Below, one piece after another: positions 1 to 34,467 of a DNA stretch of 64,000 bases. The notes beneath the pieces are model-generated. The model was not told where the DNA came from. It ran no database searches and saw nothing but the letters and a program-made list of their open reading frames with translations. Every line of letters begins with the position of its first letter. The stretch's first letter is position 1. A program made the translations under genes and the position numbers. This DNA comes from Escherichia phage BME3, in sequence record PP239276.1; one strand, given 5' to 3'.

Positions 1-55
1 AACGCGATTTTCAGCGCCCCCCGATTTCTGCCGACCGTCCCCCTCAAATATCAAT

Positions 56-84: not shown

Positions 85-250
85 AATGACTTATAAGACT
101 TTTGATTATTTTCTGAGCGAAAAAGGTGCTACTCACAACAAAACAGATAAATTCTAAGTAAATCAATGACTTGGCAAGTCTAAACATCTATATACACCTT
201 GCCAAATGAAATGATCCTGCGTGAAATAGTGCTACCCGTGGAAGATAGCT

Positions 251-271
251 GATAATGATTATCATTTGCAT
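251..271. repeat. Fur-box-like repeat (gataatgattatcatttgcat)
   Basis: 16/19 identity to Fur box consensus by eye. Confidence 0.45.
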
Positions 272-660
272 ATTTTCTATACTATAAAACGCCCTAAAAA
301 TCAAGATAATTCTACTTTATTGCGCTTTTAAGAAAGTAGGCTCAACAAATAGGGAGATACATTGCAACAAATAGGGGTAATTTTATCCAACAAATAACAA
401 CAAATAGTAAGTTATATGGGGCAATAGTATGAAAAATCATCTATTCAGATATAAATAATTTTGCGCAATAGTAGTAATATTTTCTTGACAAGAAAGATTT
501 CTTTGTGTTCACATAGCGCCCCCTGGAAGGTGGCGCATTATGATCATCGGTGTCATTATTCACGATGTTTACTATTGCATAGCTCATTATTTAGCTTATA
601 TTATAGCCAATGTTCTAAACATTAGCTAATAATAACGCACCGCAACAATGTAAGGGAATA

Positions 661-793
661 CAATATACCATGTATATTGTTGCGCTTGCAATTGTTGCAA
701 GCTACATAAGCACAAATAATAACTATCGGTGATAGTTATTATGTGGGGTGTGTAGTTGCGTTATTATTAGCCGCCTATGTGTCCGGCATAGGC
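661..793. repeat. Cluster of four inverted repeats in non-coding DNA
   Basis: caatatacc-atg-tatattg (661-679), cttgcaa-ttg-ttgcaag (685-701), aataactatc-ggt-gatagttatt (718-740), gcctatg-tgtccgg-cataggc (773-793). Confidence 0.5.
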
Positions 794-1161
794 TGCTAAT
801 GATACGCTTGCGAATTATATTTCTTGTTATAGTTATTGTATGAAATGATTACTGTATGAAATTGTTATTTAGGTAATAAATAGTAAGGTAAAGATTAGAT
901 CATAAATAGATAGGATATTAATTATTTAGCAATGTTACTAACAATTTAATAGTTACTTTGTGCAACAATTCGATAGATTATAGTTATAGTTTTAAAGGTT
1001 AGATAGATTATAGTTAGCTTAGTAATGATTTACATTGATTATTGTTGTTTAATATAAGGTTATCAATGAGATAGTAACAGTAAGTTATAAATAAAGGTGA
1101 GATAATTAGTTTTAATTTAGTTAGATAACTTATTATTTTATAGATTAGATGGTCATAAGTT

Positions 1162-1236
1162 AAGAATGATTATCATTATTGCATTATGCAGTTTATTGCA
1201 TAAATAATCAGCTATAAATAAGAATGATTATCATTT
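1162..1236. repeat. Two Fur-box-like repeats (aagaatgattatcattattgcat; agaatgattatcattt)
   Basis: Copies at 1162-1184 and 1221-1236 share the GAATGATTATCATT core. Confidence 0.4.
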
Positions 1237-1440
1237 AAGAGGAAAGACAAGAAAAAGGCTGTTTTTGCCAGATAGTTGCATGAAGAAATTAAAAATAAGC
1301 GGTCTAAAACACGCTGTAAGCGCCTTATGATCTTCATGGTATGGTTGTTCATCTGCTCCTTGATTAGCTCGATACCGCGATCTATTCACTTTTTTCGGTG
1401 AACGTTTTTGATAGGTAAAAGCTATCATCTTTATTTAGGT

Positions 1441-1467
1441 AAAAAGAAAGGGCGCTTTGTGCGCCCT
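1441..1467 (-). terminator. Rho-independent terminator after early gene 1483..1866
   Basis: Hairpin agggcgc-tttgt-gcgccct; T-tract follows on minus strand. Confidence 0.5.
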
Positions 1468-1482
1468 GGTGTGAAATGTTAT

Positions 1483-1866
1483 TTACTGATAAGCTGGATC
1501 GTTTGTTATATCAATCCAATGAGTTAAATTAATTTTATTTTTTGCTTTCATTTTCTCGATCAAACGTTCGGCTAATGTTTCTGAACGAATATAAACATAG
1601 TCGCTAAAATCTTGCCCCGTTTCTTCGTCGATCATCTCGCGATATTCAATTTTCCCGATAAACGCATGATTCAGCGCATAAGTTTTACCCGTGTACCAGT
1701 TGTGCAAATGAATCTCACATTTATAATCATCGCTATAACCTTCGGTTGTTCTAACTTCAACCAAGTCGCCTTTGAACACGGATAAGCACCACATAGGATC
1801 ACGATCTACAGCGCCGTTAAAATCTTTACCGTTTACAGTAGCCGCCAGGTTGATGATATTGCTCAT
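1483..1866 (-). CDS. hypothetical early protein (127 aa)
   Basis: ORF track 1483..1941 trimmed to ATG at 1866 preceded by RBS acgagg and a sigma70-like promoter. Confidence 0.6.
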   Translation of the reverse strand: MSNIINLAATVNGKDFNGAVDRDPMWCLSVFKGDLVEVRTTEGYSDDYKCEIHLHNWYTGKTYALNHAFIGKIEYREMIDEETGQDFSDYVYIRSETLAERLIEKMKAKNKINLTHWIDITNDPAYQ

Positions 1867-1912
1867 GGTGATTCCTCGTTTACCGTTTAAAATGATTTGC
1901 CCTACGTGATAA

Positions 1913-1941
1913 ATAATAATGTAAGCGTGATCCGGTGTCAA
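1913..1941 (-). promoter_or_regulatory. sigma70-like early promoter (TTGACA-17-TATTAT)
   Basis: -35 at 1936-1941, -10 at 1913-1918 on minus strand. Confidence 0.5.
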
Positions 1942-2284
1942 TAGGCGAGATTGTAAAGATTTGATAGTTTATTCCTTTGATGTTTTGTTGTTTGATAGGT
2001 GGAAGCTATCAATATATAGCGGGATCTTCCGGTGATTATCTTCCCCTGTCCCCAAGTGCCGCCCGTTCCATAATAATAATCAAAAGCAGAATAAAAGGCA
2101 AGATAAAAAGCAAATTATTTCCTATGTGCTTTAAACGCTCTAAACAGCTTTATAACAGCTTTTTCATCCTGGTAAGGGGATTAATCATTACTACCTTGTT
2201 TAAACGGTTACAATCGGTTTTAGGCTGTTTTACGCCACCTTTACGCCTATTCTTTACGTGTTGTTTCCATCGTGAAAAAAGAAT

Positions 2285-2316
2285 ACAAAAAAGGGCGCTT
2301 AGTGCGCCCCTTTCTT
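2285..2316. terminator. bidirectional hairpin terminator gggcgc-ttagt-gcgccc
   Basis: A-tract upstream and T-tract downstream; lies just after stop of 2327..2716 (-). Confidence 0.5.
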
Positions 2317-2326
2317 TTACCGTGTA

Positions 2327-2716
2327 TTAATATTCGTTATAATACATCGCTAACTTTTCATCAAAAGCCGCTTGACGATCTGCATACTCCCAAAACATTT
2401 CCTGATCCTGCTGGTCATCTTCATCCATCATGTTAAACTGTGCCACTTCCTGGTAAGTGATCGCCATATTATAACGATAGGTGATCTCTTCTGCGATGTT
2501 TTCCGGTAAAGATGATTCTACACTGTCTAACAGCATATTTAACATCATTTCAGCCGCTTTTTCATCATTATCAAAGCAGTAAGCAGACCATGCCGCATGA
2601 TGTTTATTTTTCATCTTTGCAATCAAGCCATTGACTAAAAAAGGCGCTACGTTGTTAACGATACCCTGCAAGGATTGGAATTTTTCAACGTTAGAAACAG
2701 AAACCAGGTTGCGCAT
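2327..2716 (-). CDS. hypothetical acidic early protein (129 aa)
   Basis: ORF track 2327..2776 trimmed to ATG at 2716 (MRNLVSV) downstream of leader hairpin; C-terminus rich in D/E. Confidence 0.6.
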   Translation of the reverse strand: MRNLVSVSNVEKFQSLQGIVNNVAPFLVNGLIAKMKNKHHAAWSAYCFDNDEKAAEMMLNMLLDSVESSLPENIAEEITYRYNMAITYQEVAQFNMMDEDDQQDQEMFWEYADRQAAFDEKLAMYYNEY

Positions 2717-2739
2717 AGTATTTACCTTTTTGATTACCT

Positions 2740-2800
2740 GGCGGGAAACCATTTCCCGCCCTATGTGGTAAATCATACCATATTGGGGATCGGTGTCAAT
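2740..2800 (-). promoter_or_regulatory. early promoter plus leader hairpin module
   Basis: TTGACA (2795-2800), 17 nt spacer, TATGAT (2772-2777), box ttaccacatagg, perfect hairpin ggcgggaaaccatttcccgcc (2740-2760). Confidence 0.6.
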
Positions 2801-2805
2801 ACTTT

Positions 2806-3192
2806 TTATTCAATATAAATCAAATTATCTTCACCAATGTAAGCATGCACCGATGGCATTAATTTAGCTGCATTTGTTAGGCGGTTGGCGGTGTTAGTAG
2901 TGTATATTTCAGGGCGATCCCAAAAACCTATGCCGTGACCGTTACGGGTGAAATGTAAGTCATTCCCGATCTGGTTTGCTGTAGCGCCGTCGCTCATTGC
3001 CTCAGAGATAGCGGCAACATTGGCACTACAAAAGGCGGTCACATCGCTGGTAATACGTTTCAGGGCGCTAGAAGAAAAATCATAATCGTCTAGATTCTCA
3101 ATATATTCCCCATTGTGATCCGTCGCTGGTTCGGCAAAAATAAAGGCTTCTTTATAGCCGTTGATCATTTCGTTAATGATTTCAGTTTTCAT
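2806..3192 (-). CDS. hypothetical early protein (128 aa)
   Basis: ORF track; start overlaps stop of upstream gene (ATGA). Confidence 0.6.
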   Translation of the reverse strand: MKTEIINEMINGYKEAFIFAEPATDHNGEYIENLDDYDFSSSALKRITSDVTAFCSANVAAISEAMSDGATANQIGNDLHFTRNGHGIGFWDRPEIYTTNTANRLTNAAKLMPSVHAYIGEDNLIYIE

Positions 3193-3413
3193 GCTGTACG
3201 CTCGACAATAATAATGGTTTGCGGGATCTCGTTTTCTACTACTAACAAGGCTTTTTTCTGTGTGATAGATATTTTAACACGTTGTAAAGTAGCGGTGAAA
3301 TCTTTCATTTCGTCACGTGGTGTTTTAGTGCAATGCCAGATCTCAGGTTTACCTATTTGCAAGCCGCGTAAAAATTCTGTTTTACCTGTCTTATTCGTGA
3401 TCACTTGTTTCAC
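3189..3413 (-). CDS. hypothetical small early protein (GTG start; alternative GTG at 3404)
   Basis: ORF track; translationally coupled to 2806..3192. Confidence 0.45.
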   Translation of the reverse strand: MKQVITNKTGKTEFLRGLQIGKPEIWHCTKTPRDEMKDFTATLQRVKISITQKKALLVVENEIPQTIIIVERTA

Positions 3414-3414
3414 C

Positions 3415-3519
3415 TTAGCCGATACCGTGGGAAGATAGAATCATGTTAGCCATAGTTGCAATCACTCCAACCGATAACGCCAGGCCCACTATTGCAACCG
3501 TGAAAATTTTCTCTAACAT
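3415..3519 (-). CDS. 34-aa hydrophobic peptide MLEKIFTVAIVGLALSVGVIATMANMILSSHGIG
   Basis: Hand-translated; below the 60-aa ORF-track cutoff; sits behind its own promoter/leader module. Confidence 0.35.
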   Translation of the reverse strand: MLEKIFTVAIVGLALSVGVIATMANMILSSHGIG

Positions 3520-3537
3520 GATGCTACCCTCATTAGT

Positions 3538-3600
3538 GGGCGTTGCCTTATTGCCCCGCCCTATGTGATACATATTATCAGCTTATTAGCCGTTGTCAAT
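3538..3600 (-). promoter_or_regulatory. early promoter plus degenerate leader hairpin
   Basis: TTGACA (3595-3600), TAATAT -10, box gtatcacataggg, hairpin gggcg...cgccc. Confidence 0.5.
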
Positions 3601-3704
3601 CACTTTTTTAAACTTCTTTCAAAGAGAAGATCATCGATCTCAGAAACAATAAGCGTTATCAAAGGAATAATAACCGCCGCGCACATCATGGTAAGAATAA
3701 TCAT
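3600..3704 (-). CDS. 34-aa hydrophobic peptide MIILTMMCAAVIIPLITLIVSEIDDLLFERSLKK
   Basis: Hand-translated; single predicted TM helix; downstream of module 3724-3782. Confidence 0.35.
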   Translation of the reverse strand: MIILTMMCAAVIIPLITLIVSEIDDLLFERSLKK

Positions 3705-3723
3705 TTTAGTTCTCTCTATTCTG

Positions 3724-3782
3724 GCGGGAAACCATTTCCCGCCCTATGTGGTACACTTTACCAGATAACCGCATATTGTCAA
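3724..3782 (-). promoter_or_regulatory. early promoter plus leader hairpin module
   Basis: TTGACA (3777-3782), TAAAGT (3755-3760), box gtaccacataggg, hairpin ggcgggaaaccatttcccgcc (3724-3744). Confidence 0.6.
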
Positions 3783-3783
3783 A

Positions 3784-4053
3784 CTATTTTTTCAAGCTCG
3801 ACCAGTCAAAACACGGGGCGATCTCGTTAAAACTTGTACCCTGTAAAGCACATAATTTTTTAGCAATAGCCGCCGTAACCTGGCGTTGTACGCGCGGATC
3901 TGCTACTGATTGGAGAAAATAGGCGGTTTTATACGTGATCATGCTTTCGCCCGTTTCTTTGTTAATATGATGCACTATTTTAGCTTTATCATCTTTCACC
4001 AGGGTGTAACCGGATTCGATGGCCTTGATTGCAACGTCCAATGATATTTTCAT
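3784..4053 (-). CDS. hypothetical early protein (89 aa)
   Basis: ORF track; leader hairpin ggcgggg-n7-ccccgcc (4074-4094) and RBS aagagg upstream. Confidence 0.6.
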   Translation of the reverse strand: MKISLDVAIKAIESGYTLVKDDKAKIVHHINKETGESMITYKTAYFLQSVADPRVQRQVTAAIAKKLCALQGTSFNEIAPCFDWSSLKK

Positions 4054-4101
4054 GATTTACCTCTTTATTGACGGCGGGGAATACTCCCCCCGCCTTATTA
4101 A

Positions 4102-4272
4102 TTACTCTTCATCGTCGCCGTTATAGTATTCAATGCCGTTTTCATCGGTTACAGTAATGTTAACGCCACCGATAGCAACACGATCACGGGCAAACGTCAT
4201 GGCTTCATTTAAATCTTCAGACCAAAAAATATTGTGACCTTTGCGCGATACGTAAAACATAGTTGGGATCAT
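4102..4272 (-). CDS. hypothetical early protein (56 aa)
   Basis: ORF track 4102..4302 trimmed to ATG at 4272 (MIPTMFYV) after leader hairpin. Confidence 0.5.
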   Translation of the reverse strand: MIPTMFYVSRKGHNIFWSEDLNEAMTFARDRVAIGGVNITVTDENGIEYYNGDDEE

Positions 4273-4293
4273 GATTTGTTTCTCTTCTGTTAT

Positions 4294-4351
4294 GAGCGGC
4301 ACTATTGCCGCCCTATGTGATAAACTTTACTACGTTGTTTGCCTAGTGTCA
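4294..4351 (-). promoter_or_regulatory. early promoter plus leader hairpin module
   Basis: TTGACA (4346-4351), TAAAGT (4324-4329), box ttatcacataggg, hairpin gcggca-atag-tgccgc. Confidence 0.6.
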
Positions 4352-4353
4352 AA

Positions 4354-4638
4354 TTATTTTTTAATGTTTTGCCCTACAAAATTAATCACTTCCTTAAGCT
4401 GTTTCTCAGTCATGATCGTGCCTGGCAATTCTTCTTTGATTTCTTCCGGTAGATAGATATTACCGCGCCAGGTTAATAAACAACCGTTTTGATCTTCACA
4501 GATAGAATAAGAGAAGATCCACTCATTATCATTCTCAAGCTCCCAAAAGCACAAAAAATCTTCTTTCCCCAGGTTTTCAACGGATAAGCATAATCCGCGA
4601 CGTGCTGCATAGTTGGAAAGTGCTTTTGTGATCTTCAT
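4354..4638 (-). CDS. hypothetical early protein (94 aa)
   Basis: ORF track; ATG at 4638 follows leader hairpin and promoter. Confidence 0.6.
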   Translation of the reverse strand: MKITKALSNYAARRGLCLSVENLGKEDFLCFWELENDNEWIFSYSICEDQNGCLLTWRGNIYLPEEIKEELPGTIMTEKQLKEVINFVGQNIKK

Positions 4639-4657
4639 ATCTTATCTCTTCTGTTAA

Positions 4658-4720
4658 GGCGGGGAAACCATTTCCCCGCTCTATGAGATACAATATACTC
4701 CTTATCAGGTGTGCTGTCAA
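4658..4720 (-). promoter_or_regulatory. early promoter plus leader hairpin module
   Basis: TTGACA (4715-4720), 17 nt, TATATT (4692-4697), box gtatctcatagag, hairpin cggggaaaccatttccccg. Confidence 0.6.
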
Positions 4721-5044
4721 TCAATAATCTTCAATATTTTCTACATTGACAAAAGCATGTTTATTTTCTAAGTTTTCGCCGTACCATTGCCCCATGTTGA
4801 TTTCTGCGGTGCGTAACCAGGACATGCCGCGTTCTATCTTTTTGCTCGCAATGTCGATCCGGCTTTTGCATAGTGCTTTAGCTTGCAATGTAAAAACATT
4901 ATTGCCATGTAATGCTTCCAGGTCATCATGTGCAAGGCGATACTCTTTAAAGCCTGATTCTATCATTTCAATCGCATCAAGGAAACGAGCGCGATGATAG
5001 AAAAAATCAGAGTTATCCAAATAAACACCGATCACAGATTTCAT
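4721..5044 (-). CDS. hypothetical early protein (107 aa)
   Basis: ORF track 4721..5104 trimmed to ATG at 5044 (MKSVIG) with RBS aaaaggg. Confidence 0.55.
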   Translation of the reverse strand: MKSVIGVYLDNSDFFYHRARFLDAIEMIESGFKEYRLAHDDLEALHGNNVFTLQAKALCKSRIDIASKKIERGMSWLRTAEINMGQWYGENLENKHAFVNVENIEDY

Positions 5045-5144
5045 AATTTTACCCTTTTGTTTGCGGCCTTTGCCGTTTTCAAGATATAGTTTAAAGCATA
5101 ACAAAAAATTGTCAAGCCTTTAAAGCGTACAACTATAAAACCTA

Positions 5145-5264
5145 TTAAAACACAATGCATAACAACATGGTTATAGTAGCAATACAACATAAAGCCATGC
5201 TTGTTTTCCTTCCTTCCTCGTATGCTGGATTTATTACGCTATATTGTACGGGAATAATTTTCAT
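5145..5264 (-). CDS. possible 39-aa peptide
   Basis: Hand-translated ORF with RBS aagga; weak support. Confidence 0.25.
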   Translation of the reverse strand: MKIIPVQYSVINPAYEEGRKTSMALCCIATITMLLCIVF

Positions 5265-5273
5265 GCTGTTTCC

Positions 5274-5369
5274 TTAATGTCTTAAAACGTGGTTTACAAT
5301 AGAAACAAGTATACAGAAGAAAAAAGATCCTGACAATAAGATCCCGAAAAATAAATGTAAATAGGGCAT
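5274..5369 (-). CDS. 31-aa hydrophobic peptide MPYLHLFFGILLSGSFFFCILVSIVNHVLRH
   Basis: Strong RBS aaggag 7 nt upstream of ATG; hand-translated. Confidence 0.35.
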   Translation of the reverse strand: MPYLHLFFGILLSGSFFFCILVSIVNHVLRH

Positions 5370-5373
5370 GGTT

Positions 5374-5676
5374 TTACTCCTTAAAAAAATCATTGACAAT
5401 TAAACTGATAACGCCCAGCACCAGATCACCAGGTAGCGCCGCGCTTTCGTTGTTGCTTGTTTGCACTTCCTCACTAGTACCAGCATGATAGATCGCATGG
5501 TAAGCAATAGTATAATAACCTTTCGTTATTTCTTTAAGATTAATGATTAGCACGTTATTTGTTTCATCTTGAAACAATTTAGCGGTGATAGTATTGTTTT
5601 CTTTTACACTATCGACTTTTATTGATGGATCATTTACACCAGAAAAAAGAAAAAACGTTTTAGCTATGCCGTTCAT
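5374..5676 (-). CDS. hypothetical early protein (100 aa)
   Basis: ORF track; RBS aaaggaga; promoter upstream. Confidence 0.6.
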   Translation of the reverse strand: MNGIAKTFFLFSGVNDPSIKVDSVKENNTITAKLFQDETNNVLIINLKEITKGYYTIAYHAIYHAGTSEEVQTSNNESAALPGDLVLGVISLIVNDFFKE

Positions 5677-5688
5677 GTAGTTCTCCTT

Positions 5689-5717
5689 TGTTGTGTGTAT
5701 CTTATAACGTGCTTTCT
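5689..5717 (-). promoter_or_regulatory. sigma70-like early promoter (TTGACA-17-TAAGAT)
   Basis: -35 at 5712-5717, -10 at 5689-5694; no leader hairpin. Confidence 0.5.
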
Positions 5718-5723
5718 ATGTTG

Positions 5724-6125
5724 TCAATCTTTTATTTCGGTGCATTTTGCTAGGGTATACGTTGCAAGTGCTGCCACTAGTTTTTCATTGCTACGATCTG
5801 CGGCTGTACTGTGTACTTTTTGAATACTTTTTAACCACGGTGTAAAATTTTGAGTAGTCAGCACACTAGTAATAATTTCACATGGTACATCTTCATTTAA
5901 GCCATTAACAATAGATTTATCTATTTTTGCCGTTAGTTGTGTAACAGCACCATAAGCGATCATGTGTGAATCCTCCATGATTTCATCGGGGATCGCATTA
6001 TTAATAAGCATGACGTTTTCCATTGCATCAACGGCGCTTAATTCTGCTACTGTGGAGGATATCGCCGCGCTAGATGTTCCAACCATGCCAAAAGAGATTA
6101 AACCAGCGATCAATAATTTTTTCAT
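5724..6125 (-). CDS. secreted early protein (134 aa)
   Basis: ORF track trimmed to MKKLLIAGLISFGMVGTSSAA signal-peptide-like N-terminus. Confidence 0.6.
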   Translation of the reverse strand: MKKLLIAGLISFGMVGTSSAAISSTVAELSAVDAMENVMLINNAIPDEIMEDSHMIAYGAVTQLTAKIDKSIVNGLNEDVPCEIITSVLTTQNFTPWLKSIQKVHSTAADRSNEKLVAALATYTLAKCTEIKD

Positions 6126-6133
6126 TTCTTGCC

Positions 6134-6316
6134 TCATATATGTTTTATTGAGATTATATTGTCACTATATACAACGTTTTTCAACGTGTCAATAAAAATC
6201 TTATTGCCTTCAATCCCCAGGATCACGCCGCTAGTTATAAAGCCATATTGATCACGATATCGGGCGCATAACCTTTGCCCCTGGGCTAGTGCCTTGCTTA
6301 TTTCGTCTAATTTCAT
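6134..6316 (-). CDS. hypothetical small protein (60 aa)
   Basis: ORF track; RBS acaggag. Confidence 0.45.
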   Translation of the reverse strand: MKLDEISKALAQGQRLCARYRDQYGFITSGVILGIEGNKIFIDTLKNVVYSDNIISIKHI

Positions 6317-6406
6317 TTTTAAAGCTCCTGTAAAGCTGTCTAACGTGGTTTATAGGCTTATCCTGGCGTTACCATTGCCTATGGGTAACAAGCCTCTATA
6401 TAAGCT

Positions 6407-6433
6407 AAAAGGGCGCTTATTGCGCCCTTTTTT
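6407..6433. terminator. bidirectional hairpin terminator gggcgc-ttat-tgcgccc
   Basis: Flanked by A-tract and T-tract. Confidence 0.5.
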
Positions 6434-6434
6434 G

Positions 6435-6572
6435 TTATTCGTTCCAGTATCTTTTTGTGCTGCGATCTCTTTTTGTTTTGTTCCGCTTGTCGCCTTTTTT
6501 GGTGATCTCTTCGTTCCAATCTTTACGCGCTTTGTTGCGGTTGAATTTTTCGATCTGCTGTGATGCGTTCAT
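6435..6572 (-). CDS. possible 45-aa basic protein
   Basis: Hand-translated (MNASQQIEKFNRNKARKDW...); RBS agagga; ends at terminator. Confidence 0.35.
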   Translation of the reverse strand: MNASQQIEKFNRNKARKDWNEEITKKGDKRNKTKRDRSTKRYWNE

Positions 6573-6587
6573 GTTTCTTCCTCTTAA

Positions 6588-6947
6588 TTACGCCACGTTG
6601 TGCTGTTTTGCCAGGGTTACGATCATGCTTGCAATATATAACCAATAATTTTCCCGCTCACGGGTAACGGTTGTTTCTTTGCTTGTTTCTTTTATGTACT
6701 TCCATTCAATTAATAATTGATCGATCTCGTTATAATTAAAAGCTATATTTATTTCTGACGGTAAACCTTGTAACCAGCTTTTAACAGCTTGTACCATGTT
6801 GTTATTATAACGATCACGATTAGATTGATACCAGTATTCAGAATTAAAACGGCGCATCAGTTCGGTGATTTTTTCTTTTTCGGTTGTAGTACCATCAAAA
6901 GAAATAGCCGACAAAATGTAAGTTTTAATTGCTTTTGCTGATTTCAT
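6588..6947 (-). CDS. hypothetical early protein (119 aa)
   Basis: ORF track; preceded by module 6969-7026. Confidence 0.6.
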   Translation of the reverse strand: MKSAKAIKTYILSAISFDGTTTEKEKITELMRRFNSEYWYQSNRDRYNNNMVQAVKSWLQGLPSEINIAFNYNEIDQLLIEWKYIKETSKETTVTRERENYWLYIASMIVTLAKQHNVA

Positions 6948-6968
6948 AATCTTATCTCTTTATTGATG

Positions 6969-7026
6969 GCGGGAAACCATTTCCCGCCGTTGTTGTCACT
7001 TTACTTATAAATGATGCTACTGTCAA
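6969..7026 (-). promoter_or_regulatory. early promoter plus leader hairpin module
   Basis: TTGACA (7021-7026), 17 nt, TAAAGT (6998-7003), hairpin ggcgggaaaccatttcccgcc (6969-6989). Confidence 0.6.
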
Positions 7027-7033
7027 GCGAATA

Positions 7034-7204
7034 TTATTTATTTTTTAGCGTTAACGTTCCCAGCTTATCAGCGTGACGCAGACCAGGGAAGATCCATTTA
7101 CCTGATTCATCTTTTACCGGGGCTTTAAGCGTAGCGCCCAGGTTGGCGGCGTTAACTTTACGTGCAACGTTGCGAGCGGCTTCACGGGTAGCGAAAGTGA
7201 TCAT
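7034..7204 (-). CDS. possible 56-aa protein
   Basis: Hand-translated; leader hairpin ggcggtgg-n-ccaccgcc and TTGCAA-17-TAAACT promoter upstream. Confidence 0.4.
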   Translation of the reverse strand: MITFATREAARNVARKVNAANLGATLKAPVKDESGKWIFPGLRHADKLGTLTLKNK

Positions 7205-7295
7205 GATGTTTTCCTCTTCTCTTTGTTAGGCGGTGGGCTATTCCACCGCCTTGATGAATACAGTTTACTTTATTTTTGCAGTATTGCAAGCGGTT

Positions 7296-7511
7296 TTATG
7301 AAATAAATGTCAAAGTAAAATCATAATCTTTTGATAGTTTATATTGCACCTTGTTACCGTATATGTCACCTTTACGTAAAGATCCACGGATACCGATAAC
7401 ATCTTTCACATCTTTAAGATTTTTCACGCCTGTAATATCTTTATTAAAATATTCGTCATCTGAAAATAAAACTTGCTTTGCATTTTTTAACAAGGTGCGG
7501 ATATTAGCCAT
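7296..7511 (-). CDS. hypothetical early protein (71 aa)
   Basis: ORF track 7296..7559 trimmed to ATG at 7511 (MANIRTLL). Confidence 0.55.
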   Translation of the reverse strand: MANIRTLLKNAKQVLFSDDEYFNKDITGVKNLKDVKDVIGIRGSLRKGDIYGNKVQYKLSKDYDFTLTFIS

Positions 7512-7532
7512 GATGATTTCTCTTTTAGTTGT

Positions 7533-7590
7533 GAGCGGCACTATTGCCGCCCTATGCATTACATTTTACTGATTTTAGTTATCTTGTCAA
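7533..7590 (-). promoter_or_regulatory. early promoter plus leader hairpin module
   Basis: TTGACA (7585-7590); hairpin family gagcggcactattgccgccc (also at 4294 and 11175). Confidence 0.55.
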
Positions 7591-7598
7591 GATTATTT

Positions 7599-7826
7599 TT
7601 AGTTTAATCCATCCAGGCACAACAAGCGATCAACATTCAGATCGGTTAGGCTAATCGTTGGCACCTGGTAGGATTCGATGTACTCAACGCTCGACCATTG
7701 CCCAAAGTTAGCGACCGCCCAGCTATTCAAGGAGGAGTGAAGATCATCCCCTTTCTTCTCGGTGATAACTGCTACTACCTGGGAGATTCCAACCGTACCG
7801 GATACGCGAACAATAACGATAGCCAT
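7599..7826 (-). CDS. hypothetical early protein (75 aa)
   Basis: ORF track. Confidence 0.55.
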   Translation of the reverse strand: MAIVIVRVSGTVGISQVVAVITEKKGDDLHSSLNSWAVANFGQWSSVEYIESYQVPTISLTDLNVDRLLCLDGLN

Positions 7827-7848
7827 AATTATAACCTTTCTTTGATTT

Positions 7849-7908
7849 GGCGGGAAACCATTTCCCGCCTTATGTGATATATCTTACACTAATTTAAAAC
7901 GTTGTCAA
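7849..7908 (-). promoter_or_regulatory. early promoter plus leader hairpin module
   Basis: TTGACA (7903-7908), TAAGAT, box atatcacataagg, hairpin ggcgggaaaccatttcccgcc (7849-7869). Confidence 0.6.
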
Positions 7909-8003
7909 ATTATTTTCTATTTCTTCCGTAATAGCCCAATTTATGATCTAAGCTAAAACGTTTTGTGAGATAGGTCGAACGATGTTTCATTTTTATGTCT
8001 CCT

Positions 8004-8243
8004 TTACATTCCAACCATAGCGGCACGGATCGCGGTTTTACTGAACTTGAATCCGTCTGGCGTTTTATCTTGATCCATACTTTCAAGAAATAACATCATA
8101 TCCCGCGCTGCGTCATTTTTATTGGTGTTAGCTGCGATAAATTCACGCGCAAGATTATAAAAACCTTCATCGTTGTTGATCCAAAGGCTTACATTCCAAT
8201 GAGTTTTATTTTTGTGACCGTTGTACATTTTAGATTTAGCCAT
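8004..8243 (-). CDS. hypothetical early protein (79 aa)
   Basis: ORF track 8004..8300 trimmed to ATG at 8243 (MAKSKMY) after leader hairpin. Confidence 0.55.
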   Translation of the reverse strand: MAKSKMYNGHKNKTHWNVSLWINNDEGFYNLAREFIAANTNKNDAARDMMLFLESMDQDKTPDGFKFSKTAIRAAMVGM

Positions 8244-8264
8244 GATGTTAATCTCTTTTTCAGT

Positions 8265-8326
8265 GAGGCGGGAACTATTCCCGCTCTCGATGTAAACCAT
8301 TATATAGTAATAAAATACTTTGTCAA
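8265..8326 (-). promoter_or_regulatory. early promoter plus leader hairpin module
   Basis: TTGACA (8321-8326), 16 nt, TATAAT; hairpin gcgggaa-cta-ttcccgc. Confidence 0.6.
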
Positions 8327-8328
8327 TA

Positions 8329-8511
8329 TTATTTTTTGGAAAGTTTACGCATTAATTCTACGCTTTCTTGTGAACGTTTCGCTACCTGGCAAGCTGCATG
8401 GGTAGTGAACATTTTTGTATAGTCTGACGGTTTGCCACCGAACTTAGCGGCACGTTCACGGGCACTTGGAACTAATACTATTTCTTTCTTACAGATAGTG
8501 CATTTAGCCAT
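8329..8511 (-). CDS. hypothetical small protein (60 aa)
   Basis: ORF track. Confidence 0.5.
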   Translation of the reverse strand: MAKCTICKKEIVLVPSARERAAKFGGKPSDYTKMFTTHAACQVAKRSQESVELMRKLSKK

Positions 8512-8530
8512 TTTTATTTCTCTCTTTGTT

Positions 8531-8593
8531 AGGAGGGGAAACCGTTCCCCGTCCTGATGTGATACAGTTTACTCTTTTTATTCGTGCTGTCAA
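8531..8593 (-). promoter_or_regulatory. early promoter plus leader hairpin module
   Basis: TTGACA (8588-8593), TAAACT; hairpin ggggaaaccgttcccc. Confidence 0.55.
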
Positions 8594-8599
8594 TACTTT

Positions 8600-8965
8600 T
8601 TATAAATCTTTTTTACGTTTTACATCGCTTGCATGACTGTATACAGTGATCCCATTGTCACGGCAAAAACGGGAAAGATAAGCATAATTTGAAAACTCTT
8701 TACCTTCCAGGTTGATAACCTTGCTAAACTCTTCCAGGGCGACGGTATCAAAATGATCACCATAACCATATTGAAACGGAACGTTAACGACTTCAATCAG
8801 TTTACCGCCGATCTCAACGTCAACCATCAAAGAGAAATAAGTATTACCATAAGACTTTTGAAACCAGCGACGGGCGCTAATATGTACCGCTTCAATGCTG
8901 GATAGTTCAATTTTAGCAGTGTTAGCCAGGGTAGCATAAGCAGAAACATTGATATTTTTAGCCAT
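8600..8965 (-). CDS. hypothetical early protein (121 aa)
   Basis: ORF track. Confidence 0.6.
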   Translation of the reverse strand: MAKNINVSAYATLANTAKIELSSIEAVHISARRWFQKSYGNTYFSLMVDVEIGGKLIEVVNVPFQYGYGDHFDTVALEEFSKVINLEGKEFSNYAYLSRFCRDNGITVYSHASDVKRKKDL

Positions 8966-9012
8966 AGTCTTTAATCTCTTTTGATTAGTTAGGAGTATTC
9001 CCGATAAAAGTT

Positions 9013-9041
9013 ATTATGCTTGTACTATCGTTCGTTGTCAA
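9013..9041 (-). promoter_or_regulatory. sigma70-like early promoter (TTGACA-17-CATAAT)
   Basis: -35 at 9036-9041, -10 at 9013-9018. Confidence 0.45.
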
Positions 9042-9060
9042 TAGCACAAGACTAAAACTT

Positions 9061-9240
9061 TTAACGATAATCATCATATGCTTTATTGACCTGGCGAATA
9101 TAGCTTTCAAAAGCTAGATCAATAGATTTATATTCACGGATATAATCACCATAGGAAACCACATACATTTCTATAGCTTCCTCATATGCCAGGATGATAG
9201 AATCTAAACCTACGATCTCAGTCTTTGCAATAATAGCCAT
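9061..9240 (-). CDS. possible 59-aa protein
   Basis: Hand-translated (MAIIAKTEIVGLDSIILAYEE...); RBS aaggaa; TTGACA-16-TATAAT promoter at about 9268-9295. Confidence 0.4.
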   Translation of the reverse strand: MAIIAKTEIVGLDSIILAYEEAIEMYVVSYGDYIREYKSIDLAFESYIRQVNKAYDDYR

Positions 9241-9387
9241 GCTTTTATTCCTTAGTAATGTTTCAATCTATATAAGCATTATAGCTTACTGATTTCAGGT
9301 GTCAAGTGATTTTTTATTTCACTTTATGGGGGCGTTGCCCCGCTCTATGTGGTATATATTACGGGGCTTGTTTGCATATGTCAAGCC

Positions 9388-9942
9388 TTACACAATGCAA
9401 TTTTCATAATTTTCTAAGGCTTGTCTTTTTTCCTCTTCCGTTGGCATGTATGGCTGGATCTCTTCCTCTTCCAGGGTAGACATGATTTCTTCCTCTTCCT
9501 CCTGGTCGCCCTGGTCTTCCTCTTGCGCTATGGTAACAAGTTTATTGATCTTCTCCTGGGCTTTAATCAATTTTGCATCTAGCACCATTTTAGCGGTGTT
9601 GTATACCGTCCATGCCATGCGCTTTTCTTCGTATGCCTTATCTAGTGCGGCTAATTTAGCGGGATACTCTTCCAACACCTTAAAAGCCGGATCAATGCTG
9701 TATAAGGGATTATTTTTAGCGTCATCGCTTGGATCTGCGGCGCTTGCAATGTCAGCGTTACCATTCGCCAGCCATCCAGGGCGAACGGATCGTGTCCTGG
9801 TGTTGCCGTTGCTCTTTGCCGCTCGATTTCCTATCTGCTCCCCGCTATACCCTACCATGTGATCGATCATGTCATCTGGTATTATGCGCGGATCATTAGC
9901 ATCATGCTTTACCCAGGACTGGATCACATATTCACGCCCCAT
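9388..9942 (-). CDS. hypothetical early protein with poly-acidic C-terminal region (184 aa)
   Basis: ORF track; EEDQGDQEEEEEIMSTLEEEE stretch. Confidence 0.6.
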   Translation of the reverse strand: MGREYVIQSWVKHDANDPRIIPDDMIDHMVGYSGEQIGNRAAKSNGNTRTRSVRPGWLANGNADIASAADPSDDAKNNPLYSIDPAFKVLEEYPAKLAALDKAYEEKRMAWTVYNTAKMVLDAKLIKAQEKINKLVTIAQEEDQGDQEEEEEIMSTLEEEEIQPYMPTEEEKRQALENYENCIV

Positions 9943-9943
9943 G

Positions 9944-10204
9944 TTAGTTCGCCTCTTCTGTTAGTAGTTTACATACCTTAAACATGCTTGCCGCGTCTTT
10001 TGACGGTAGCCAGCCTATGCGATACACTCCAGGGCCTGGGTTAGTTATATCCGTTAATTGAGCGTTACGATGATTAAAGATAGTGTAACCGCCGCCAGCA
10101 CGGGGATAAACATTATCTTTAAACCTGATAGCGTATCTCGCCAGGTCGAACGTTGTAGCATGTTCAAAAGCGATCACATTATCAAAAACTTTTAGAAAAA
10201 ACAA
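9944..10204 (-). CDS. hypothetical early protein (86 aa, TTG start)
   Basis: ORF track; start codon reads TTG with strong RBS ggagga 5 nt upstream. Confidence 0.5.
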   Translation of the reverse strand: MFFLKVFDNVIAFEHATTFDLARYAIRFKDNVYPRAGGGYTIFNHRNAQLTDITNPGPGVYRIGWLPSKDAASMFKVCKLLTEEAN

Positions 10205-10221
10205 GATTATCCTCCCCAGCG

Positions 10222-10353
10222 TTTAAAGCCCGTTGCACGGTTGTTTTTTAGCTCTCGTTTTAGTCTCTTGCAACGGTTTACAAGTGCAAACCGTGCCGGA
10301 GTCGTAACAGTAGCGCCGTTTTTGGTATGAATACTCATTACATATTGTTTCAT
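10222..10353 (-). CDS. possible 43-aa basic Cys-rich peptide
   Basis: Hand-translated (MKQYVMSIHTKKRRYCYDSGTVCTCKPLQETKTRAKKQPCNGL); follows module 10372-10425. Confidence 0.3.
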
Positions 10354-10371
10354 AAAGTTTTATCCTATGTA

Positions 10372-10425
10372 AGCGGGAACTATTCCCGCTTTAAGATAGC
10401 TTATCAGGTTTTAGTGCAATGTCAA
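10372..10425 (-). promoter_or_regulatory. early promoter plus leader hairpin module
   Basis: TTGACA (10420-10425), 16 nt, TAAGCT; hairpin agcgggaa-ctat-tcccgct. Confidence 0.5.
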
Positions 10426-10431
10426 CCGTTT

Positions 10432-10794
10432 TTATTCGTAAATTTTACCGCTTTCTACCCATACCATAACACGGCGCATGTTATCCCATGCATCTTGTCG
10501 CAGATTTAAGGCATGCAATTCTTCCGTGGTGCTCATGCCTGGCACGGGCTTGCTATATGTTACAAAAAGATCGCCAGCATATTCATAAGCCAGAGTAAGA
10601 TCACATTGAATCATCTTTTTAATCATAGCATTAAGCATCATATTAGCGGCATGTTGATCACGTTTTAGCGGTAGCGTTGCGATCTGTGAGCGATAGCTTT
10701 CGATACGTGCATCCACTGCATCACGCGAAAGATTTTTCACGTCATCGCGGAAAGATACCAGGTTAAACATTATAGTATTGATTTGCTTGCTCAT
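10432..10794 (-). CDS. hypothetical early protein (120 aa)
   Basis: ORF track. Confidence 0.6.
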   Translation of the reverse strand: MSKQINTIMFNLVSFRDDVKNLSRDAVDARIESYRSQIATLPLKRDQHAANMMLNAMIKKMIQCDLTLAYEYAGDLFVTYSKPVPGMSTTEELHALNLRQDAWDNMRRVMVWVESGKIYE

Positions 10795-10817
10795 TGTGTT
10801 ACCCTTTCTTTGATTTG

Positions 10818-10876
10818 GCGGGAAACCATTTCCCGCCTTATGTGGTATATATTACTAAATTATTTTTCAGTGTCAA
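10818..10876 (-). promoter_or_regulatory. early promoter plus leader hairpin module
   Basis: TTGACA (10871-10876); box ataccacataagg; hairpin ggcgggaaaccatttcccgcc (10818-10838). Confidence 0.6.
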
Positions 10877-10879
10877 GTC

Positions 10880-11152
10880 TTAAAGCAAAAACGCTACATC
10901 TTTCGCTTTTAGTGTAGTGTCAATCATGTTCGGGCTTTTATAATCCACAAAGCGCGCGGTTTTTTCAATAGCGAAACCGAGATAATCTTGCTTATTGAAG
11001 TTACATTCTTTTTTAAATGTTTCCCGTGCCACTGTGATCGCTGCGTCCAGGGATAAACGCCCGTCAATGTTGATGTTAGCGAAAGATCCGCCACCGCGCA
11101 TAGGTTTACCAGTGATACCCATTACGATCATTGATGCGCTATATGATGCCAT
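10880..11152 (-). CDS. hypothetical early protein (90 aa)
   Basis: ORF track. Confidence 0.6.
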   Translation of the reverse strand: MASYSASMIVMGITGKPMRGGGSFANINIDGRLSLDAAITVARETFKKECNFNKQDYLGFAIEKTARFVDYKSPNMIDTTLKAKDVAFLL

Positions 11153-11174
11153 GATTATTTCTCTCTTCTGTTAT

Positions 11175-11236
11175 GAGCGGCACTATTGCCGCCCCTCGAC
11201 AAGATGAATACTACGCTACCAGGTGAGGAACGTCAA
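11175..11236 (-). promoter_or_regulatory. outermost early promoter plus leader hairpin
   Basis: TTGACG (11231-11236), 17 nt, TAGTAT (11208-11213), hairpin gagcggcactattgccgccc. Confidence 0.55.
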
Positions 11237-11271
11237 CCATTTTTTTAATCTTTTTTTCATTTCTTTTTTGC

Positions 11272-11300
11272 TTGCTATCTATAAAGGAAACGGCTATTAT
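11272..11300 (+). promoter_or_regulatory. divergent sigma70-like promoter (TTGCTA-17-TATTAT)
   Basis: -35 at 11272-11277, -10 at 11295-11300, upstream of ATG 11348. Confidence 0.45.
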
Positions 11301-11347
11301 CTTTCTACCGCGCCAACCAGGGCGCACATCAAAGAAAGGGCGATACC

Positions 11348-11614
11348 ATGACAAATACTCCTTTACATCTCATGCACTCATTGGGCTGGCAAGGCGGCAC
11401 GGTGCACCAGGTAGCAAGCGCAACGGGCTTAAAGGTTGAAACCGTTCTCAACCTGGGCGATCATAAAGTGGAAGAGATAGAACATTTTGATCCGTTCGCT
11501 GATGGTTATCTATGGGCTTGCAGTGGCGGTGGGGAAAGCAAGATCCCACCAGGGGCGCGGGGCGACATGTATTTTTGGTTAGGTGTCCTATCCTGGCAAG
11601 AAAACAAAAAATAA
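11348..11614 (+). CDS. hypothetical protein (88 aa)
   Basis: ORF track; RBS aaagaaaggg. Confidence 0.55.
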   Translation: MTNTPLHLMHSLGWQGGTVHQVASATGLKVETVLNLGDHKVEEIEHFDPFADGYLWACSGGGESKIPPGARGDMYFWLGVLSWQENKK

Positions 11615-11616
11615 TC

Positions 11617-11645
11617 TTGACAAGCCCAGGGATCGGGCTTATACT
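11617..11645 (+). promoter_or_regulatory. strong sigma70-like promoter (TTGACA-17-TATACT) with no obvious downstream ORF
   Basis: -35 at 11617-11622, -10 at 11640-11645; spacer contains hairpin agccc-n7-gggct. Confidence 0.45.
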
Positions 11646-11875
11646 GTTTTACATACAGAAGAGGAAGCGCCACCCCCACGGCGTAAAGGCGGGGCTAACA
11701 TACCAGGGGGCACTGGTTGGAAGGTTGATCGCCGGTAGCTCGTCTAAAATAAATTTGTAAAGAAATGTAAAGATAAAAATAATCGCTTGCTTTTGTTGTT
11801 GGTTATGCTATTCTTATTGTATGGCGAGGGGACACGGGAGCGCGAGACAAACACCACCCCTGCGCGTTATTCTCT

Positions 11876-11990
11876 AAATGAGAAAAATTCTCATTTGCTA
11901 ATGATTCTCATTCTCTTAGTGAGAATGATTATCACTTACATAATTAAATGATAATGATTCTCATTTACAAATGAGAATGATTATCATCCG
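11876..11990. repeat. Array of Fur-box-like palindromes
   Basis: aatgagaa/ttctcatt, tcattctc-ttagt-gagaatga, tctcattt-aca-aaatgaga; gagaatgattatca core recurs. Confidence 0.5.
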
Positions 11991-12010
11991 CACACCCATA
12001 AAAACACGAA

Positions 12011-12225
12011 ATTGAACTTTTCATTTTTGATTTTTCTACGGAAAAAGGCAAAAAAACTTTAAATAAACTGGGGAATTTTTTAAAAATTGAAGTTTTCATT
12101 TTCAAAATCTGGATAGAAATACATACAAAAACTTTAAATAATTTTGACCAAACTTGAACTTTTCATTTTCAAAATTTGTATCCAAAAATCTGTAAAAACT
12201 TTAAATAATTTTGTCCTTTTTATAA
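12011..12225. repeat. Three imperfect tandem repeats of about 68-75 bp
   Basis: Units start near 12011, 12086, 12153; each has ttgaacttttcattttcaaaat and aaaactttaaataa. Confidence 0.6.
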
Positions 12226-12427
12226 AAATGATTTTACTGTTCTGTTATAAATAGTAGTTAAGAGATAGTATGCCTTTTAAAAACCAGATATCATAATCCA
12301 ACAAACAAATTAAATAATTTATTAACAGAGTACAAAATAATATTTACTCTGAATATATTATTCAGAGGGTGAATTTCCGTACATGAAACCCACACCCCTT
12401 TTTATAAAAATAAAAATTTTCAAAATA

Positions 12428-33412: not shown

Positions 33413-33489
33413 TTGACTTTCTTTAAAAACAGTTTATAGTATAAGACATAGAGCGGAGGATTGTCCTCCGCATTAAAGAGGAGAAAAGA

Positions 33490-34467
33490 ATGCAACTGGG
33501 TTTCCCAATTATTGATGTGGTTGTTTTAGTGGGTATTTTAGTGTTGTCGATTTGTATTGATTTCTTTGGACACAGAGAAAACAAAGAAATTTCATTTAAA
33601 TCTGCAATTGGTTGGTCAATTTTCTGGATTGGGGTATCATTAGCCTACTATGGTTTTGTATACTTCCAACACGGTGCTGATTTTGCGAGCTTGTTTTTGA
33701 GTGGGTATGTGTTGGAGAAATCTCTTTCTGTAGATAACTTAGTAGTATTTGTGGCAGTATTCGCAAGTTTTGGTATTAAAAGCACACACTTGCAACACAA
33801 GATTCTACTTTGGGGTATTGCAGGTGCGATTGTCTTCCGAGGTGTGTTTGTAGCAGTAGGCACTTACTTGTTGAGTTTGGGCTGGTATGTTAATATCTTC
33901 TTCGGTGCGGTCATCCTTTTCTGTGCAGCTAAAATGGTATTCGCTGGAGATAATGACGCAGAAGTTGATTACTCTAAACACTGGGCTACTCGCATTGTTC
34001 GTAAACTGTTCCCTGTATCTGATCAGATGGATGGCGAGAAGTTCTTCACAATCAAAAATGGTGTTCGTGTAGCAACTCCGGCTCTGGTTTGTGTGTTTGT
34101 AATGGAAATGGTTGACGTAATCTTTGCAGTAGACTCTGTTCCAGCAGTAATTGCAGTGACACAAGAACCTCTGCTTGTATTTTCTTCAATGCTGTGTGCA
34201 ATTTTAGGTTTACGTGCTCTGTTCTTTGTCCTTAGTGTTGCACTGAAATATTTGGTTCATCTGGAGAAAGCAGTTATCGTAGTCCTGGTATTTGTGGGTG
34301 TAAAACTGATGTATCACCCGTTTGCAGAAACTCTGCACGCAAAAGTGAGTTTCCTGCCAGCACACATTGATCCGACGATCAGTATGTATATTGTGTTAGG
34401 TACTCTGGGGCTGGGTGTTATTGCAAGTTTAATCTTCCCTGAAAAAGAAGACCAAGCTGTTGCTTAA
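33490..34467 (+). CDS. terC: TerC-family integral membrane protein
   Basis: Signature EKSLSVDNLVVF and multiple TM helices. Confidence 0.8.
   Translation: MQLGFPIIDVVVLVGILVLSICIDFFGHRENKEISFKSAIGWSIFWIGVSLAYYGFVYFQHGADFASLFLSGYVLEKSLSVDNLVVFVAVFASFGIKSTHLQHKILLWGIAGAIVFRGVFVAVGTYLLSLGWYVNIFFGAVILFCAAKMVFAGDNDAEVDYSKHWATRIVRKLFPVSDQMDGEKFFTIKNGVRVATPALVCVFVMEMVDVIFAVDSVPAVIAVTQEPLLVFSSMLCAILGLRALFFVLSVALKYLVHLEKAVIVVLVFVGVKLMYHPFAETLHAKVSFLPAHIDPTISMYIVLGTLGLGVIASLIFPEKEDQAVA

Follow-up and report, generated by a model that had tools for sequence, protein, structure and literature searches.

A portable promoter-hairpin cassette repeated before the small early genes of Escherichia phage BME3

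Almost every small early gene of unknown function in Escherichia phage BME3 bears the same portable cassette, in which a near-consensus sigma-70 promoter is followed by a GC-rich hairpin, a Shine-Dalgarno sequence and a start codon. We analyzed a 64,000-nucleotide (nt) stretch of this phage (PP239276.1; hereafter the window), in which an earlier note, made from the letters alone, had flagged about 9.3 kb as holding a reiterated early-gene module. The repeated promoter-hairpin observation is confirmed, and the interpretation then placed on it is partly supported. That account overlooked the analogy with the promoter-early stem-loop (PeSL) cassettes of T4-like myoviruses (Arbiol et al. 2010, PMC2839356; Comeau et al. 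2014, PMC4122927), as well as the fact that it is at the cassettes that gene content varies between related phages. We conclude that the cassettes probably steady early mRNAs and mark where such differences fall.

Sequence similarity assigns the window to a phi92-like myovirus of the genus Justusliebigvirus, subfamily Stephanstirmvirinae, with the flagged region matching Escherichia phages ESCO8, KKE7M, muut, alia and others as mosaic pieces at 95-97% identity. About 290 related genomes came up in this comparison. The region contains about 25 small open reading frames (ORFs) on the minus strand, and all 10 of the early-region ORFs tested belong to PHROG families of unknown function. A tRNA scan of the window found no tRNA.

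Scanning for TTGACA-like and TAnnnT hexamers and folding the next 32 nt, we recovered 15 promoter+hairpin units on the minus strand between positions 2714 and 11236 (Table 1), where the earlier note had counted at least 13. The order of elements is an A-tract, TTGACA, a spacer of 16-17 nt, TAnnnT, a C-A step, a GC-rich stem-loop, an A-rich leader with a Shine-Dalgarno sequence, and ATG. Thirteen of the 15 units have the TTGACA-16/17-TAnnnT arrangement, with TTGACG and TTGCAA as the -35 hexamers of the other two, and A+T makes up 73% of the 25 nt ahead of the -35 compared to 60% region-wide, with an A-tract consensus. The geometry is fixed: stems start 10-12 nt past the -10 in most units (and in 40 of the 62 distinct hairpin segments collected from window and relatives together), and 17-23 nt of unstructured, A-rich leader separate the end of the stem from the ATG. 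Only one further promoter+hairpin unit was found in the other 51 kb of the window (33413, + strand).

Stems are 6-10 bp long, with folding energies of -13 to -19 kcal/mol; an energy of -8.5 kcal/mol or lower is reached by only 4.6% of 32-nt minus-strand windows, the hairpins themselves included. Three hairpin sequences recur exactly: a 21-mer, GGCGGGAAACCATTTCCCGCC, with five copies (+ strand 2740, 3723, 6968, 7849 and 10817; none expected from 100 shuffles), a 20-mer, GAGCGGCACTATTGCCGCCC, with three (4294, 7533 and 11175), and a 17-mer core, GCGGGAACTATTCCCGC, with two (8268 and 10373). The earlier note had reported these same repeats, with three of its positions for the 21-mer off by 1 nt. 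It had also called the hairpins perfect and placed them after a conserved box; the hairpins are there, but several have a bulge or a G·U pair, and in unit 10425 CATAGG comes after the hairpin.

The claim of a conserved box needed to be narrowed. The sequence CACATAGG is exact in 4 of the 15 units and has one mismatch in three more; as a free-standing 8-mer with one mismatch allowed, it is not enriched across the window (46 found versus 42.6 expected). The constant core is instead a C-A step 7-8 nt past the -10, which 11 of 15 units have. Escherichia coli RNA polymerase prefers to start at pyrimidine-purine steps spaced in this way from the -10. We infer that host RNA polymerase starts most likely at this step, the core of the 'CACATAG box'. 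The predicted 5' tail ahead of the stem would be 3-4 nt with a start at the A 8 nt past the -10, and 5-6 nt with a start at an A at 6 nt.

The design extends over three phage genera. In the Phapecoctavirus ESCO13, about 20 units of the same design occur within 10 kb, several of its hairpins being promoter-less, and the rV5-like phage NHEP1 (Vequintavirus) has about five. Only one clear cassette was found in the 100 kb scanned of PVP-SE1 (Seunavirus), indicating that the design is not universal in the Vequintavirinae. A pattern scan of IMG/VR recovered the boxed form in only 5 contigs, whose lengths (97-153 kb) are consistent with this phage group. The combination of box and hairpin had no match in 5,426 E. 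coli genomes, which makes the element phage-specific, and a host origin was rejected on this basis. We found no published description of promoter-proximal hairpins in phi92-, phAPEC8- or rV5-like phages in a literature that did not include the genome papers on phi92 and PVP-SE1. None is mentioned in the paper on rV5 or in its promoter and terminator tables, which end a few nt past the -10.

Intrinsic terminators likewise have GC-rich, intergenic hairpins, but they combine these with a U-tract and a position at gene ends, whereas the cassette hairpins lack a U-tract and lie downstream of a promoter. The terminator scan flagged no promoter-proximal hairpin on the sense strand: none has a T-run on the minus strand, and their tails are A-rich. 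T-runs are present at the region's true terminators, of which one canonical example is listed in Table 1 as a contrast. The earlier statement that the hairpins lie downstream of the -10 without U-tracts is thus borne out, and these two properties together imply that the hairpins would form 3-6 nt from the mRNA 5' end and would not terminate transcription. A role as attenuators or terminators restricting read-through from the upstream cassette, as proposed for T4-like PeSLs, nevertheless deserves attention, because one PeSL stem-loop cut lacZ expression as much as rrnB T1 (PMC2839356) and because each cassette lies directly behind the preceding gene, so that read-through RNA also holds the hairpin; one promoter-less hairpin even stands between two genes. 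We consider this role improbable given that three canonical terminators in the region have a sense-strand U-tract while the cassette hairpins have none, that each cassette would cut short its own transcript if it had a strong terminator at +5 to +25, and that termination has no need of a fixed distance from the -10.

Evidence for the hairpin as an RNA structure came from folding across copies, a check that the earlier note had suggested. When 5' untranslated regions (UTRs) were folded from the A 8 nt past the -10 to 12 nt beyond the ATG, the predicted structures placed the hairpin 3-4 nt from the 5' end and left the leader and Shine-Dalgarno sequence unpaired (z-scores -1.7 to -4.2). For comparison between copies, we assembled 39 distinct hairpins from the window, four Justusliebigvirus relatives, ESCO13 and NHEP1. 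A MAFFT alignment of these misplaced the 3' arms and was replaced by an N-padded, fold-guided alignment, which is biased towards structure. Paired cells made up 91.4% of this alignment compared to 82.6% in shuffles, and 0 of 500 shuffles matched the observed value, although these statistics are inflated, since the alignment derives from predicted folds and both descent and gene conversion connect its rows. Both-sided changes occur at five stem pairs (at pair 5, for example, G-C in 23 rows, C-G in 10, A-U in 1 and U-A in 1), and the outer pair is G·U in 11 rows. In 47 of 62 hairpins, G·U pairs give the sense strand a more stable fold than the antisense strand. Substitutions are mostly in the loops, of which there are at least nine of 3-6 nt (UGG, UAG, AUAG, CAC, UGU, AAC, CUA, UUG and AAUAGC). 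The compensatory stem changes and sense-strand G·U pairs favor a structure maintained by base pairing of the sense transcript. As in hairpins of the ompA type, structure rather than sequence is conserved, except at the invariant GCGG/CCGC pairs.

That near-invariant stem base, together with a recurring central AAT(A/G)G(T)T motif, the placement of the element at +5 to +25 of many promoters and its restriction to phages, could instead mark box and hairpin as the recognition site of a trans-acting factor controlling all early transcripts together, such as an early-shutoff repressor or roadblock, a nut/boxB-like antitermination factor, an RNA-binding protein or a 5'-end-modifying enzyme. We regard such a site as unlikely. 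The variable loops and the GCGG...CCGC core, which spans 14 to 22 nt, clash with both a fixed-spacing dimeric operator and a loop binder of the N-boxB type; the both-sided compensatory changes indicate pairing and not sequence read-out; and the invariance is explicable by gene conversion between copies. Two specific candidates were rejected, a dimeric repressor operator because half-site spacing is not fixed, and a nut/boxB-type antitermination site because the loop is not conserved. In lambdoid nut sites (boxA-boxB), a short conserved box and a small hairpin stand early in the transcript, and the conserved boxB loop is read by N. The cassettes resemble them in having a short box and small hairpin in the 5' part of early transcripts but differ in that their loops vary freely and their copies number in the dozens; we know of no N-like factor for the cassette hairpins. 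Rfam gave 0 matches in the whole window at gathering thresholds, no candidate factor was identified, and there is no evidence for a dedicated trans-acting factor, so the earlier suggestion of a dedicated layer of control or factor-binding site was not upheld. A broader version, in which the invariant GCGG/CCGC and box are read by a dedicated phage-encoded factor acting as an RNA- or DNA-binding switch for all early transcripts together, a marker of their 5' ends or a structure-specific, cassette-mobilizing recombinase, also seems improbable to us; if true, it would make the array a coordinated regulon or integron-like system, going beyond passive stabilizing hairpins.

Gene content varies between relatives at the cassettes. 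In blastn comparisons of window positions 1-13000 with four relatives, 17 of 24 synteny breakpoint clusters fell within cassettes ±10 nt, intervals that make up 22% of the region (P = 5e-7), an enrichment that is partly expected because the cassettes make up nearly all intergenic DNA and breaks within genes are selected against. Three further clusters lay no more than 16 nt from a cassette. After splitting units into promoter, hairpin, and leader plus gene, and identifying promoters by their unique spacers, we observed reassortment in both directions: the same promoter precedes different hairpin/leader/gene units in different phages (P3, P6, P10 and P18), and the same gene follows different promoters (L0, L4, L5 and L11). 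Some joins (units 11236 and 1941) coincide with the hairpin 5' edge; others fall in the spacer or -10, in the box, or immediately past the hairpin, a scatter that fits homologous recombination but no fixed site. Where cassettes of the window share sequence, the longest identical tracts (22-42 nt) are limited to box, hairpin and leader; the spacers share nothing. The comparison of genomes shows that these shared tracts apparently serve as recombination junctions that shuffle genes of unknown function. At 10371-10391, the hairpin centre is exactly inverted relative to its ESCO8 orthologue (minus strand AGCGGGAATAGTTCCCGCT versus AGCGGGAACTATTCCCGCT), which suggests an inversion or strand switching inside the palindrome.

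Two other explanations bear on this mosaicism. The hairpin could have no function of its own, being a repeat that was spread and homogenized by recombination or gene conversion and is tolerated in 5' UTRs. Identical tracts of 21-42 nt in otherwise unrelated cassettes would agree with this, as would the swapping of hairpin types at orthologous sites and the one inverted orthologous loop. A neutral repeat would, however, not account for pairing that is kept through both-sided changes, for substitutions concentrated in loops, for a fixed position relative to the -10 and ATG, or for a design that persists in two subfamilies with different stems, and we think it quite unlikely. Alternatively, the hairpins might be targets of a structure-specific recombinase that mobilizes gene cassettes, like integron attC sites, an idea raised for T4-like phages by the authors who described PeSLs (PMC2839356). 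Although genes are gained and lost as hairpin-bounded units and some joins lie exactly at a hairpin edge, there is no single crossover point, joins being spread over spacer or -10, box, hairpin and the sequence past it; no integrase-like gene came up beside the array, where none was examined. We judge this explanation to be very unlikely.

The early region also differs from the rest of the window in its methylation sites. In positions 1-13000 there are 53 Dcm sites (CCWGG) compared to about 10 expected, with CCAGG the most over-represented 5-mer (z = 11.7), and 95 Dam sites (GATC) compared to 36 expected. CTWGG and CCWAG are depleted (9 versus 30 expected), as would be expected from Vsr very-short-patch repair. 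Positions 13001-64000 show no CCWGG signal and only about 1.5-fold more GATC than expected, and the contrast recurs in the early regions of ESCO8, alia, ESCO13, NHEP1 and PVP-SE1. The enrichment may reflect frequent heteroduplex repair in a recombination-prone region, or selection for methylation sites.

We consider it probable, though well short of certain, that the unit is a PeSL-like early-gene cassette whose 5'-terminal hairpin acts as an mRNA stabilizer and an insulator of the ribosome-binding site (RBS), while its repeats supply recombination homology. Each small early gene would be transcribed from its own near-consensus sigma-70 promoter with an A-tract upstream, and the first ~25 nt of each mRNA would fold, 3-6 nt from the 5' end, into a GC-rich stem-loop of 8-10 bp that stands ahead of an open, A-rich leader of 17-23 nt with the Shine-Dalgarno sequence. 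Given its position downstream of the start and the missing U-tract, stabilization by a 5'-terminal stem-loop is the most economical mechanism: the stem-loop would most likely slow 5'-end-dependent decay by RppH and RNase E, like the ompA and papA hairpins. It would also shield the RBS from upstream sequence in both primary and read-through transcripts, and in read-through transcripts, as well as at 4073-4094, it could protect processed ends. The identical box-hairpin-leader tracts of 22-42 nt would provide homology for deleting, inserting and swapping gene cassettes among relatives.

Several observations weigh against this account, in addition to the limits given above for the shuffle and breakpoint statistics. 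Six strong promoters in the region (9305, 9041, 6192, 5727, 5115 and 1941) have no hairpin. The promoter-less hairpins, namely the only one in the region (4073-4094) and several in ESCO13, mean that the hairpin is not strictly an element of primary 5' ends. The four basal pairs, GCGG/CCGC, never vary, and pairing alone does not account for this invariance. Protection of the ompA type is reportedly limited to tails of 2-4 nt, according to work by Emory and colleagues (Emory, Bouvet and Belasco 1992), a limit that the start at the A at 6 nt exceeds. Finally, a literature search found no transcriptomics of these phage genera, including start sites and half-lives.

The leader of T7 gene 10 has a 5' stem-loop. 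There and in the ompA and papA leaders, as predicted for the cassettes, a stable hairpin lies within a few nt of the 5' end and the leader behind it is open and efficiently translated; in all of them, structure takes precedence over sequence. The 5' UTR stem-loops of ompA and papA protect against RppH/RNase E-dependent decay, as summarized in the passages of PMC3997798 that cite its refs 92-95. In contrast to ompA and papA, the element described here is reiterated before more than 15 genes in a single genome, and it moves together with its promoter as a unit; its 5' overhang of 3-6 nt is a predicted one, and we infer the stabilization.

The closest parallel is provided by PeSLs, which join a strong early promoter of the sigma-70 type to AT-rich upstream sequence and a GC-rich stem-loop and which mediate modular shuffling (PMC2839356, PMC4122927). 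'Half' elements and a lineage-specific stem consensus are known for PeSLs (PMC2839356, PMC4122927), and recombination between neighboring motifs yields encapsidated mini-circles (Arbiol et al. 2010, PMC2839356). The BME3 cassettes share with them the near-consensus promoter, AT-rich upstream sequence and adjacent GC-rich stem-loop, followed by Shine-Dalgarno sequence and start codon; the many repeats among the small genes of unknown function that fill a hyperplastic region (here 15 units in 9.3 kb); indels and replacements between close relatives that are bounded by motifs, with chimeric motifs at junctions; and degraded 'half' elements and a lineage-specific stem-loop consensus. They differ in lineage, being found in Stephanstirmvirinae and Vequintavirinae and not in T4-like phages, and in stem consensus (GCGGGAA...TTCCCGC compared to Gn...Cn). 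In phages phi1 and RB49, most stem-loops are placed between the -35 and -10 or overlap them, and even the most downstream subclass ends before the start site, whereas the cassette stem-loop is fixed downstream of the predicted start and would form the 5' end of its own mRNA. The terminator role proposed for PeSLs fits neither this position nor the missing U-tract. The cassette is an analogue, not a descendant, of the T4-like elements.

NHEP1 has a second repeated element, TTATTTTTA-GATGGCC-TTGACTCCAG-GGCCATC-AATAAAG-TAAACT (4121-4144, 4743-4766, 5073-5096 and 8449-8472), in which the stem-loop encloses the -35 of a promoter-like site, the commonest arrangement in T4-like PeSLs. This element is not present in the window.

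Table 1 Promoter-hairpin cassettes, half cassettes and terminators in the window (promoters are given as -35 hexamer, spacer length and -10 hexamer).
Feature	Interval	Strand	-35 start	Promoter and box	Hairpin	ATG	Remarks
Cassette 1	11150..11236	(-)	11236	TTGACG-17-TAGTAT	11175-11194 (GGGCGGCAATAGTGCCGCTC)	11152	Leader before ATG; variant promoter; join at hairpin's 5' edge
Cassette 2	10792..10876	(-)	10876	TTGACA-16-TAATAT, CACATAAG	10817-10837	10794	42-nt identical tract in common with cassette 7
Cassette 3	10351..10425	(-)	10425	TTGACA-16-TAAGCT	10371-10391	10353	Hairpin begins only 7 nt past -10
Cassette 4	9306..9384	(-)	9384	TTGACA-17-TAATAT, CACATAGA	9329-9341, short (GGGGCAACGCCCC)		Stem only 5 bp
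Cassette 5	8509..8593	(-)	8593	TTGACA-16-TAAACT	8531-8555	8511	Gene missing from ESCO8 and alia
Cassette 6	8241..8326	(-)	8326	TTGACA-16-TATAAT	8265-8288	8243	
Cassette 7	7824..7908	(-)	7908	TTGACA-16-TAAGAT, CACATAAG	7849-7869	7826	
Cassette 8	7509..7590	(-)	7590	TTGACA-16-TAAAAT	7533-7552	7511	
Cassette 9	7202..7289	(-)	7289	TTGCAA-16-TAAACT	7228-7251 (GGCGGTGG...CCACCGCC)	7204	
Cassette 10	6945..7026	(-)	7026	TTGACA-17-TAAAGT	6968-6988	6947	
Cassette 11	4636..4720	(-)	4720	TTGACA-17-TATATT	4657-4682	4638	
Cassette 12	4270..4352	(-)	4352	TTGACA-17-TAAAGT, CACATAGG	4294-4313	4272	Hairpin type exchanged at orthologous site in alia and PHB05
Half cassette	4051..4100	(-)		No promoter	4073-4094	4053	Leader before ATG; directly behind upstream gene's stop codon; kept in relatives
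Cassette 13	3702..3782	(-)	3782	TTGACA-16-TAAAGT, CACATAGG	3723-3743	3704	Gene missing from ESCO8, muut and alia
Cassette 14	3517..3599	(-)	3599	TTGACA-16-TAATAT, CACATAGG	3538-3561	3519	
Cassette 15	2714..2799	(-)	2799	TTGACA-16-TATGAT, CACATAGG	2740-2760	2716	
Half cassette	1864..1941	(-)		TTGACA-17-TATTAT, CACGTAGG	None		Departs from hairpin-bearing ESCO8 and muut sequence exactly at 5' arm
Like design outside flagged region	33413..33492	(+)		TTGACT-16-TATAGT, CATAGA	33453-33471 (GCGGAGGATTGTCCTCCGC)	33490	Gene behind it is a membrane protein, PHROG family 7180
Canonical intrinsic terminator	2287..2315	(-)			Hairpin + T-run		Contrast to cassette hairpins
Other T-run terminator	1449-1467	(-)					Terminator scan
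Other T-run terminator	6407-6431	both					Terminator scan

Downstream of cassette 4, a second promoter (TTGACA-16-TATAAT, 9278-9305) without box or hairpin precedes the ATG at 9240, so that 9278-9384 holds two consensus promoters in tandem, 79 bp apart, before one 59-aa ORF. Two further hairpins were considered as cassettes and rejected. One is a GC hairpin (28737-28755) that follows a TTGACA-18-TAAGAT match but falls within a 156-aa ORF, and it was judged a coding coincidence; the translation of this ORF appears to hold a cysteine-cluster (CxxxCxxC) motif. The hairpin at 40737-40755 was not counted, since it precedes a promoter-like site rather than following one. It is a GC hairpin (GAGGGGGATAGTCCCCCTC) without a T-run, behind a stop codon, and the promoter-like site (TTGCAA-17-TACAAT, + strand) lies just downstream, in the reverse order to that of the early cassettes.

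Two intervals have little or no annotated coding sequence. About 1.2 kb (11240-12430) separates it from the endonuclease and ATPase genes and contains one annotated small ORF only (+ strand, 11348-11614, PHROG family 19316), GC-rich hairpins at 11309-11326 and 11670-11692 that are kept in relatives, and tandem repeats of 29 bp x2.1 (11920-11981) and 67 bp x2 (12083-12213); a regulatory or origin-like role is possible. Downstream of the terminator at 2287-2315, a gap of 385 bp (1942-2326) has no annotated gene and contains short tandem repeats of 12 bp x2.7 (2082-2113) and 11 bp x3.5 (2128-2162).

Phages of the phi92-, phAPEC8- and rV5-like groups are often isolated and are used in therapeutic cocktails, yet nearly all of their early genes lack a known function, and the regulation of these genes is unannotated. 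Our results supply precise promoters, likely start sites and start codons for early genes, and a concrete, testable explanation of why gene content in the early region is mosaic. The underlying principles, namely stabilization by a 5' hairpin and recombination at repeated regulatory motifs, are already known. What the cassettes add is an extension of the PeSL concept beyond T4-like phages, with the stem-loop as a likely part of the mRNA. With its UP-like tract, consensus promoter, 5' hairpin and open RBS, the unit would be a compact, context-independent natural expression cassette of the kind that synthetic biologists build by hand.

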